A stretch of 25,448 nt of DNA from Parcubacteria group bacterium (GTDB lineage: Bacteria; Patescibacteriota; Minisyncoccia; Phycocordibacterales; Zambryskibacteraceae), in assembly GCA_040900505.1 (NCBI GenBank), contig JBBDYY010000021.1:1-25448 (forward strand), read 5' to 3'. The position numbers and the translations under genes are program-made. The notes under the pieces are model-generated. The model saw only the letters and a program-made list of their open reading frames with translations. It did not search any database and had not been told where the DNA came from. This document shows, piece by piece, positions 1 to 18,852 of the stretch (within the stretch, counting starts at the first letter, position 1; each line of letters begins with the position of its first letter).

Positions 1-54
1 GTAGACTTCAAGCCCTTCACTATTTGCACGGCGGTTCGATTCCGCCCATCTCCA
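1..54 (+). ncRNA. ssrA: tmRNA, 3' end only (gene starts before the window)
   Basis: T-arm GGCGG-TTCGATT-CCGCC (30-46), then acceptor strand CATCTCC (47-53) and discriminator A54. It is preceded by GTAGAC...TTTGCAC with no tRNA anticodon or variable arm, which is the tmRNA 3' layout. CCA is not encoded here (next bases are CAG). Confidence 0.8.
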
Positions 55-98
55 CAGATAAAGCAGCCCCGCCTCGTGCGGGGTTTTGCTTTATCTGT
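54..98 (+). terminator. Long hairpin directly after tmRNA
   Basis: ACAGATAAAGCA (54-65) pairs with TGCTTTATCTGT (87-98). Inner stem GCCCCGC/GCGGGGT around the loop CTCGT. Confidence 0.65.
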
Positions 99-105
99 TA
101 GTAGA

Positions 106-221
106 GTCGGAATCGAACCGAGGAAGGGGTCGGGAAACCTGTCTGGTTTCCCGTGGAGGAAGGCAGGGCTTTGCCCGTCGGAAAACCGTGGGTTTCCGAG
201 GAGTGAGATATCCGCCCATCT
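106..221 (+). mobile_element. Structured mini-element, copy A: inverted tmRNA T-arm copy + conserved core + direct copy of tmRNA 3' end
   Basis: 108-120 is the exact reverse complement of 32-44. Core 122-203 is homologous to 18320-18418 (minus strand). 211-221 is identical to 41-51. Mobility is inferred, not shown. Confidence 0.6.
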
Positions 222-267
222 GGCGCTTTTTATGTTTCGCTCGTGATAACTCGTGACCGATGAACCC

Positions 268-301
268 TTCCGAGGTGTGAGATATCCGCCCATCTCCACC
301 A
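268..301 (+). repeat. Second displaced copy of the tmRNA 3' end, ending in CCA (att-like)
   Basis: 268-295 matches 194-221 at 27/28 nt. 285-299 is identical to 41-55 and continues to ...CCACCA (296-301). Confidence 0.85.
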
Positions 302-17502: not shown

Positions 17503-18114
17503 CTATATTCCTAGCTTATTTAGAACGGTCTTGTGTGGGTAGTCTAGAATATCGCGTACAAGCTTGTCATAGGCGCCTAATCTATAGTTGAAATCAGGTG
17601 TTTCGAAGGAGGCGTAGCGTATTTCCTTGCCTATCTTCGCCTCGATGTTAGATATGGTAGAGACTAAGTTGGCCTTCTTTATCCTGTCTCCTACAACCAA
17701 AAGATCCACTCTAGAATCCGGGTCGTGTAAGAAGAAACCAGATAGAATAATAAGCTTCATGTTGCCAGCGCGTGAAATGCGCTTTGCAATATCTTTCTCC
17801 GTAAGAGGTCGAGCATCAATAAGAAAATTTGAAAGGGGTTCTATGTATGAATACTCGGGGTCTAAAGTAAAACCGCGAACTTGCATAACCTTAGGTTTGC
17901 CCCGCTTGCGCTTAACCACGAAGCGGACTCTACCCTTCCTGCAAACAAGACCTGCCTTCATAAGAATACCTACTTCTTTCTTGACCGTTCTGGGCTTCTC
18001 CTTAACCCGTATAGCTATTTCCTCTAGAGAAAAGACTTGATTGGGGTTAAATACGAAGAGGCGCATGATCTTGACCTTGGCCTCTCCGCCGAATATATGG
18101 CCCACTGATTTCAT
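17503..18114 (-). CDS. Winged-HTH protein fused to a degenerate Pol-beta-like nucleotidyltransferase-fold domain
   Basis: N-terminal KIMRLFVFNPNQVFSLEEIA...KKEVGILMKAGLV (wHTH). C-terminal IILSGFF...DSRVDLLVVGD (MNT-like). Confidence 0.7.
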   Translation of the reverse strand: MKSVGHIFGGEAKVKIMRLFVFNPNQVFSLEEIAIRVKEKPRTVKKEVGILMKAGLVCRKGRVRFVVKRKRGKPKVMQVRGFTLDPEYSYIEPLSNFLIDARPLTEKDIAKRISRAGNMKLIILSGFFLHDPDSRVDLLVVGDRIKKANLVSTISNIEAKIGKEIRYASFETPDFNYRLGAYDKLVRDILDYPHKTVLNKLGI

Positions 18115-18175
18115 AACGGCATTCTACACCAATATACCCCAAGCGCCACTAGTGACTAGAAAGGGCTGGTAGCAA

Positions 18176-18276
18176 AAAACCAGTGGATTTATCGTGCGTC
18201 TCGGAGCGCGACGGCGCGAGAGTCAGGAAGATTTCTAGTAAGAAATACTTCCGTGCACAGGAAATCCACTGGTTTT
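18176..18276. repeat. 15-bp inverted repeat enclosing a 71-nt structured insert (terminator-like stem with an element in its loop)
   Basis: AAAACCAGTGGATTT (18176-18190) pairs with AAATCCACTGGTTTT (18262-18276). Inner hairpins GGAAG-ATTTCT/AGAAAT-A-CTTCC and TCTCG/CGAGA. Confidence 0.7.
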
Positions 18277-18280
18277 GAGC

Positions 18281-18440
18281 TTATTTGAGGGTAACTTTCC
18301 CACCAGCCGTCGTCGCAAGCTCCTCCTTAAGAACCCTCGGTTCTCAACGAAAAACACTCTTCCGAGTGTTTTTCTGCTTTCCTCCGCGGGAGACCAGATG
18401 TTCTCCCGACCCCTCTCCAAGCCGGCGAGTAACTCTGAAG
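18281..18440 (-). mobile_element. Structured mini-element, copy B: inverted rplL 3'-end copy + conserved core + recoded direct copy of rplL 3' end
   Basis: 18419-18440 is an inverted copy of 18445-18470. Core 18320-18418 is homologous to 122-203. 18281-18307 encodes AGGKVTLK* in synonymous codons. Mobility is inferred. Confidence 0.65.
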
Positions 18441-18441
18441 A

Positions 18442-18852
18442 TTACTTCAAAGTTACTTTACCGCCGGCTTCCTCGATTCTCTTCTTCAATTCCTCTGCTT
18501 CCTCCTTCTTCATGCCTGCTTTAAGCATGCTGGGAGCTGCATCAACAAGATCCTTTGCTTCCTTAAGACCGAGGGCAAGAACCTCTTTCACTACCTTGAT
18601 GACTGCAATCTTATTTGCACCACCGTCAGTGAGTTCTACATCTGCTGTAGCCTTTTCCTCAGCTGCTTCACCTGCTGCTGCGGGACCGGCTGCTGCGACT
18701 GCTGTAGCTGATACTCCGAACTTGTTTTCAAACACCTTTACAAGCTCGTTAAGATCCAAGACTGACATCTTCTCTATCTCAGCTACAATCTTTTCAAACT
18801 TTGCAGGAACTGCAGTTTCTGCAGCTTCTACGTTTGTTGTTTCGTCTGCCAT
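18442..18852 (-). CDS. rplL: 50S ribosomal protein bL12 (L7/L12)
   Basis: [21 protein letters not shown]...[22 protein letters not shown]...AGGKVTLK. Confidence 0.98.

Follow-up and report, generated by a model that had tools for sequence, protein, structure and literature searches.

A probable miniature structured insertion element with a second, synonymous copy of the rplL gene end in a Parcubacteria genome

The rplL gene of a Parcubacteria group bacterium (family Zambryskibacteraceae; assembly GCA_040900505.1) is followed by a second, non-coding copy of its own last codons, and the segment between the two copies likely belongs to a family of small structured insertion elements, here called family 1. 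The window analyzed is the whole stretch of 25,448 nucleotides at positions 1 to 25,448 of contig JBBDYY010000021.1, from a fragmented metagenome-assembled genome of 46 contigs that is 79.5% complete (G000). The rplL (bL12) gene occupies 18852..18442 on the minus strand as an intact open reading frame (ORF) of 136 amino acids, with 59-87% identity to relatives. Its last nine codons (18468-18442, minus strand) read AGGKVTLK followed by a stop; this translated end, also the 5' arm of a foldback, is termed X_p. The direct copy, X_d (18307-18281, minus strand), is non-coding, and its translation matches that of X_p. The two differ at 8 of 27 bases, all synonymous, with seven codons changed and two identical, and 161 bases lie between their stops. 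The first-pass annotation, made from the letters alone, had pointed out this duplicated end and its silent differences, and translation and comparison with relatives bear it out.

X_d is not an ORF, since a TGA stands in its frame 20 codons upstream of its stop and no ATG, GTG or TTG occurs between that TGA and X_d, in agreement with the earlier remark that the copy is part of no independent frame. A strong AGGAGG lies 14 bases upstream of X_d, and the 161 bases between the two stops hold no ORF. The idea that X_d is the tag reading frame of a transfer-messenger RNA (tmRNA) was dropped, as ARAGORN reported neither a tRNA nor a tmRNA in the window or at the copy.

Between the two gene ends lies a compact structured unit. 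Directly behind the rplL stop is X' (18419..18440, minus strand), an inverted, antisense copy of the gene end that pairs with X_p in 9 and 13 base pairs separated by a 4-base bulge, with a UAAU loop that includes the stop codon. This foldback, already described in the first-pass annotation, has a predicted energy of -33.2 kcal/mol (z = -8.0), and none of 200 shuffles was as stable. The family-1 core follows (18313..18420, minus strand), a full-length match to the family covariance model, R1 (71.3 bits, E ~1e-17). Sequence matches define its most conserved 45 bases (18374..18418, minus strand), which include helix 1 (GGGAGAAC...GTCTCCC) and are 91% identical to positions 76-120 of another contig of the same genome (C14) and 80-93% identical to sequences in many families of the order. 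Next comes a variable terminator-like hairpin (18349..18374, minus strand) with an 11-bp stem, a GGAA loop and flanking A and T runs; in G010 and G020 another stem stands at this position, with the pairing kept. Helix 2 (TTGAGAACC-GAG-GGTTCTTAA; 18327..18347, minus strand), in which 8 of 9 pairs covary, is followed by a purine-rich 3' linker (18309..18326, minus strand) that resembles a ribosome-binding site, reads ..EELATT in the X_d frame and is identical in sequence among G000, G004 and G010. The conserved 3' module that encodes LKEELATT is also present in copies with other targets. The residues upstream of X_d are the element's linker read in frame, and X_d is therefore not the remnant of a longer rplL paralogue, an origin that the first-pass annotation had named as one that would overturn its view.

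Across the family the order of parts is X_p, sometimes a terminator, X', the conserved block, an optional variable hairpin, a second conserved hairpin, the purine-rich linker and X_d. The whole is about 135-190 bases long and protein-less, with a core of about 93 model positions (80-110 bases), and its inverted repeat is formed by the target X_p together with X' and not by the element's two ends. At gathering scores Rfam had no match in the window, and at E <= 10 it gave only a weak His_leader match of 18 bits; a scan of the C14 copy likewise gave none. Signal recognition particle RNA, RNase P, group I and II introns and ribozymes like that of hepatitis delta virus were dropped as identities for the core, their motifs mismatching by eye and Rfam being silent.

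Family 1 is widespread but sporadic. R1 was built from 104 aligned copies and matches 109 sites among the loci gathered for analysis; it gives three strong matches in G000, where two weak matches (C12:1679-1746, 24.5 bits; C31:398-483, 19.7 bits) are possibly decayed copies. Within the genus, 15 of the 22 genomes are positive, with 0-5 copies per genome, while seven have no match, five of these being 92-97% complete. Genus tallies and one aligned copy (L071) take in G018, an unpublished genome, on which alone no specific claim rests. BLAST found the 45-base block in 43 of 201 genomes sampled from the order. A pattern scan with one genome per species gave at least 119 loci. Almost all come from assemblies that carry the label Patescibacteria or candidate phyla radiation (CPR), with hosts among the Parcubacteria/Paceibacteria groups, the Berkelbacteria and records labelled Saccharibacteria. 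Pattern scans of 2.9 million viral contigs returned no match to the core, and a viral origin of X_d was set aside on the same silence. Two helices of the core covary, with 13 of 18 pairs changed on both sides and neither 500 shuffles nor any slid control reaching the observed values, in an alignment fitted to the covariance model and so biased toward the proposed structure; RNAalifold on a MAFFT alignment gave helix 1 alone, and helix 2 required the covariance-model alignment. Full-text searches, with subscription journals outside their coverage, found no description of such an element.

One short motif hints at the form in which the element works. GCGAAGC occurs 38 times in 33 of the 104 elements against 0.5 expected, a count that overstates independent events as many copies share descent, while its reverse complement occurs once. 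It sits at the tip of the variable hairpin or in the 3' linker, on one strand. As DNA, GCGAAGC forms an exceptionally stable mini-hairpin with a melting temperature of 76.5 C, whereas for the related GCGAAAGC in its RNA form the value is only 39 C, and mini-hairpin motifs of this kind mark single-stranded-DNA initiation sites (PMC13037366). The strand-specific excess hints that the working form of the element is single-stranded DNA.

The arms of the element follow its target. For 73 of the 104 copies, the tail scores higher as a repeat of some sequence in the 300 bases upstream than do 95% of mismatched controls. The median pairing energy of X' with its own X_p is -28 kcal/mol, compared with -16.4 kcal/mol for the X_p of other copies (Mann-Whitney p = 1e-28), and its pairing with its own X_d is moderate (-15.9 versus -12.1). 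The flanking repeats are 15-70 bases long, variable in length and often diverged, and the genes that host the element are highly conserved, its position being within their terminal 15-70 bases. Of the 104 copies, 38 follow a tRNA with a duplicated 3' end and a further 20 are near a tRNA; other 3'-end targets are tmRNA, rplL, rpmG and a gene ending ..PQWSKR. The 5' ends of lepA-, typA-, yebC- and murD-like genes are also used, by elements on the opposite strand. In every case the gene body is on the X_p side, and the target gene is complete because a full gene end stands on each side of the element. Among copies without a nearby repeat, a distant X_p was sought up to 7 kb upstream and gave one clear case, in G021, with no integrase. 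There (L066; G021:C1:110730-113897) about 1.4 kb with two small opposite-strand ORFs of 86 and 132 amino acids separates the tmRNA end and terminator from X', core and X_d; this segment may be cargo or a separate insertion.

Protein-coding targets allow the history of the two gene ends to be read from their codons. Pairs were taken where the gene's stop or start lay inside the repeat and the ORF had at least 60 codons or ran off the end of the locus DNA. This rule left 11 usable pairs, a doubtful 64-codon ORF (L123) having been dropped, and five pairs read by hand brought the total to 16. These pairs have 95 identical codons, 56 synonymous differences and 12 non-synonymous differences. Random placement of the same base differences gives 11 synonymous and 56 non-synonymous, and none of 5000 simulations had as few non-synonymous. 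At rpmG and a yebC-like gene, serine codons switch between AGC and TCT and between TCA and AGT; such AGY/TCN changes cannot be made by a single silent mutation. Local copying followed by free drift would give, by our estimate, about 60% non-synonymous codon differences, whereas 18% is observed, and both copies thus appear to be, or to have recently been, working gene ends of diverged lineages. The pattern itself is plain in the codons; its likely cause is that both ends diverged under protein-level selection, which would be why X_p and X_d differ almost only at synonymous sites. The first-pass annotation had proposed coding selection on both ends from rplL alone, and the pairs across the family support it. 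It had also said that non-synonymous changes accumulating in X_d at neutral rates across orthologous loci would count against that proposal. The three differences between the X_d of G000 and that of G010 are all synonymous. In G004 (AGGKVSFRT) and G020 (AGGKVTLTVF) decay of X_d has begun, with loss of frame or stop, and the copy is thus not shielded for good.

The rplL site is filled in some genomes and empty in close relatives. It is filled in G000, G004, G010 and G020 (in G020 at a contig start) and, in other families, in G388, G071 and G334. In a tree of rplJ-rplL DNA from which X was excluded, G000 pairs with the empty-site genome G013 (support 85/90), G004 with empty-site G001 (100/100) and G010 with empty-site G017 (99/99). 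All seven rplL-type X_d copies, from four families, start GCT GGT, while the starts of X_p vary; as the X_d start is constant whatever the host X_p, those bases belong to the element. In the closest filled and empty pair, G010 and G017, the empty-site gene end differs at 3 bases from a combination of the left part of X_p with the right part and flank of X_d, and at 7 from the reciprocal combination. At tmRNA genes, an encoded CCA is present in four of five empty-site genes and in the X_d of G000, G008 and G021, while X_p is without CCA and runs into a terminator borne by the element. Copies also appear to have been inserted in tandem or nested fashion into X_d (window 211-301 and L037; L013 for the second family described below).

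The boundary data can be set beside a known arrangement. In lambdoid phage 21 and e14 at icd, and in P4-type islands at tRNA and tmRNA 3' ends, the attachment site overlaps and restores the gene end, as in the Campbell model. Taken together, the boundaries of family 1 favor a Campbell-like picture in which X_p would be composed of a host left part and an element right part, and X_d of an element left part and a host right part. The first-pass annotation had offered, as one possibility, that one end came from the rplL of another lineage. The GCT GGT start of X_d travels with the element, the tail of X_d looks like host sequence in the closest filled and empty pair, and the source of each copy may be mixed.

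Given the above, we consider X_d to be the distal target repeat, an attR-like arm, of a miniature, protein-less, structured insertion element seated in the last codons of rplL, and we put the probability of this reading at roughly 0.8. The analogy with elements that integrate at gene ends, drawn in the first-pass annotation from icd, holds in that an insert lies between the copies and the gene is intact, but what is found is a unit of about 135-190 bases and not a prophage-like island with an integrase.

Several observations weigh against this reading. Mobility is deduced from comparison alone, and neither an empty-site joint nor a circular joint was found in the contigs of the sole run holding the locus, contigs that could mask rare variants. 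The element has no linked enzyme and there is no integrase nearby, and the presence of the reverse transcriptase (RT) and Y1_Tnp-like genes considered below does not track the element across the 22 genomes of the genus. In 31 of the 104 copies no flanking repeat rises above the mismatched-control threshold. In G000 and G004, silent variants particular to each lineage in the left part of X_p are matched by X', a finding easier to reconcile with transport of the whole X_p by the element or with co-evolution of X' and X_p. In G071 the repeat continues through the host terminator to 31 bases beyond the stop, with a single mismatch, and looks like an on-the-spot duplication or a very recent transfer. 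The bias of the covariation alignment counts here too, as does the descent that family copies share, by which counts overstate independent events. Crossovers at variable points in X over repeated cycles would explain the X' variants, the G071 repeat and the host-tailored arms.

An alternative is that the core is a resident functional non-coding RNA that does not move, such as a 3'-end stabilizer, an antisense regulator or a mimic of a tRNA minihelix, with arms recruited from the neighboring gene. The strong conservation of the core and its covarying structure are what such an RNA would show, X' pairs with the upstream transcript end, and the core carries a terminator-like hairpin and a Shine-Dalgarno-like linker. 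Yet a resident RNA does not sit well with the range of 0-5 copies in one genus and its lack in seven genomes, most of them nearly complete, nor with sister genomes that differ in the filling of the rplL site, nor with the element's sites at both ends of many unrelated genes, nor with its tandem and nested copies. It offers no reason for X_d to keep coding sense, and the GCGAAGC excess favors DNA over RNA. We regard it as unlikely.

Alternatively, the arrangement could be the scar of a larger island or prophage that bore an integrase and a replacement gene end and whose interior was later deleted, so that attL and attR now stand about 160 bases apart at rplL. Such elements characteristically leave direct repeats of a gene end and a restored gene, and in G021 the stretch of about 1.4 kb with small ORFs that separates the core from the tmRNA end could be read in the same way. 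Against this, more than 100 copies have the same 80-110-base core with covarying helices, whereas random deletions would leave no uniform structured remainder; both repeats lie within 300 bases in 73 of the 104 copies, and at rplL the 161 bases hold no ORF. The lack of an integrase nearby, the fact that the only such recombinase in G000 is of Xer type, and the silence of the viral contigs also speak against it, and scars of this kind seem quite improbable.

It is also conceivable that X_d is still decoded, by splicing, ribosome hopping, recoding or as part of a small translated ORF. The purely synonymous differences between the X_d of G000 and that of G010 would agree with decoding, as would the AGGAGG upstream. 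However, rplL is complete before the element begins, the X_d frame has its upstream TGA and no start after it, the apparent upstream peptide is a translation of the core linker common to tRNA-type copies, frame or stop is lost in G004 and G020, and the same layout stands at tRNA and tmRNA genes, where translation has no role. Continued decoding of X_d is thus very improbable. Chance similarity, or an assembly artefact joining two strain variants in a genome this fragmented, can hardly be credited, as the exact match of eight residues and a stop has an expectation of about 10^-6 in six frames of 25 kb by our own estimate, the same rplL arrangement is present in six other genomes from different samples, and in Logan's separate assembly of the likely source run a single 2425-base contig covers the entire stretch without a difference. 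The Logan contig comes from the same data and is therefore not independent support.

If the insertion-element reading is right, the element would move between lineages, entering and leaving by recombination within the homologous X segment in the Campbell style. After insertion, X_p would be made of the host's left part and the element's right part, and X_d of the element's left part (GCT GGT...) and the host's original right part with its flank. Repeated insertion and excision would expose both versions to intermittent selection and swap gene-end segments between lineages. The acting enzyme would be supplied in trans, and X' may serve as a guide or as one half of a folded target mimic. The candidates in G000 are one Xer-like tyrosine recombinase on another contig, one RT of the type found in diversity-generating retroelements (DGRs) and one Y1_Tnp-like gene. 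The RT (339 amino acids; C44:1-2504, L062) has a pair of 114-base direct repeats, 82% identical, upstream, and with a repeat pair of its own it is therefore taken to be part of a DGR. The 232-amino-acid, IS200-like Y1_Tnp gene (C22:6346-7044; L230:1047-1745) has a UvrD-type helicase gene on one side and ksgA on the other, all on the same strand. It seems to have been domesticated, like the transposases associated with repetitive extragenic palindromes (RAYTs), and similar genes for 210-245 amino acids are present in about half of the genus. A Y1_Tnp-like gene was found in 8-9 of the 15 genomes with the element and in 2 of the 7 without. The IS110-type DEDD transposase (PF01548) was found in none of the 22 genus genomes. 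A bolder proposal is that family 1 is a mobile element of a new class, a single-stranded-DNA (or RNA-templated) unit without genes of its own, in which X' is a programmable guide of about 20 bases to essential-gene ends, and which inserts and excises reversibly by homology and shuttles synonymous gene ends between CPR lineages by means of a host enzyme not yet linked to transposition. This we hold as tentative, less likely than not but with a fair chance of being right.

Comparison with known systems brings out both kinship and distance. Like Campbell-type elements, family 1 has direct repeats of a gene end flanking an insert, an intact gene and a preference for tRNA and tmRNA 3' ends, and in both cases the two versions can differ silently where one came from another host. 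Unlike them it has neither integrase nor cargo, is only about 135-190 bases long with repeats that vary between 15 and 70 bases, adds an antisense X' and a folded core, and uses one core with many targets. It differs from miniature inverted-repeat transposable elements in having neither terminal inverted repeats at the element ends nor a short target duplication of fixed length. Insertion sequences of the IS200/IS605 group and their gene-less derivatives, the palindrome-associated transposable elements (PATEs) and the repetitive extragenic palindromes and their paired forms (REP/REPIN) that go with RAYTs, transpose as single-stranded DNA, with a short internal guide that pairs with the target. 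Family 1 shares with these derivatives conserved subterminal hairpins, strand-specific features, an internal segment complementary to the target and a gene-less, multi-copy state, and G000 has a Y1_Tnp-like gene. Their guide is 4-5 bases long, however, against about 20 here, they make no target duplication whereas family 1 has long repeats, and the Y1 gene does not track the family-1 element in the genus.

The phage CTX-phi offers another parallel. Its folded single-stranded DNA mimics dif, and the host XerCD recombinase acts on it. In family 1, too, inverted target-like arms around a loop pair into a duplex resembling the target, action in trans by a host recombinase is conceivable, and the only tyrosine recombinase of G000 is Xer-like. 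Xer acts on dif only, in contrast to the dozens of unrelated gene ends here, and the family-1 element is about 40 times smaller than the phage and without replication genes. The IS110/IS1111 elements, with their bridge or seek RNAs, likewise have a structured non-coding part with reprogrammable target-matching segments, but no DEDD transposase was found in the genus, family 1 is gene-less, and its arms are long copies and not short loops. As in a DGR, a non-coding near-copy of a gene 3' end lies nearby, and G000 has a DGR-type RT (C44). The copy is only 27 bases long, though, the RT is on another contig with its own repeats, and its presence does not track the element. A DGR origin of X_d was rejected as only one of the eight differences is at an A, in either copy.

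The window holds further repeats. A sister family-1 core lies near its start (119..213, plus strand; 83.5 bits with R1) behind a tmRNA 3' end (31-56), with a terminator at 57-96, X' at 97-120 and X_d copies at 211-226 and 285-301; ARAGORN called the homologous gene in G001, G008 and G020 a tmRNA. Within window 1-301, positions 211-226 are a truncated gene end, about 227-284 a shorter variant with the 3' module only, and 285-301 a complete tmRNA end including CCA. These insertions appear to be nested. Directly behind the X_d of rplL is a structured repeat of an unrelated family, family 2 (18164..18280, plus strand), recognized by its inverted repeats and its dispersal. It has two inner hairpins closed by a perfect 15-bp stem, and an inverted match between 18164-18176 and the start of X_d (18296-18308) brackets it. 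Family 2 is present in 6 of the 22 genus genomes and on other contigs of the sample. It also targets rplL in G014 and G036, with related copies there in the opposite orientation, and the copy in G036 reads AGGKVELK, the host's own variant, with six silent differences. A contig of G036 (L013; G036:C11) ends in a tandem repeat of family 2 with an identical 17 bases of the rplL end ahead of every unit; this is either a true tandem insertion or an assembly loop at the repeat. Downstream of rplL, the gene at 17503-18114 (minus strand) encodes 203 amino acids starting MKSVGHIFGGEAKVKIMRLF, has no NCBIfam match and keeps its position after rplL in several relatives in the genus.

If the interpretation of family 1 as an insertion element is correct, a widespread parasite or commensal of about 160 bases inhabits some of the smallest known bacterial genomes, where it lodges in the ends of essential genes and leaves them unbroken. 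The protein-gene cases, such as rplL, matter most, as codon degeneracy reveals that both copies worked, which tRNA targets cannot do, and two functional copies place a strong constraint on any mechanism. The element would also provide a handle on target choice, through its long reprogrammable complementary arm, and a route for the exchange of small pieces of core genes between lineages. For annotation, gene-end fragments in CPR genomes, false 'pseudo-tRNAs' and terminator-like hairpins may belong to the element. A targeting module that is programmable and free of protein would also be of interest to genome engineers once the enzyme is identified.

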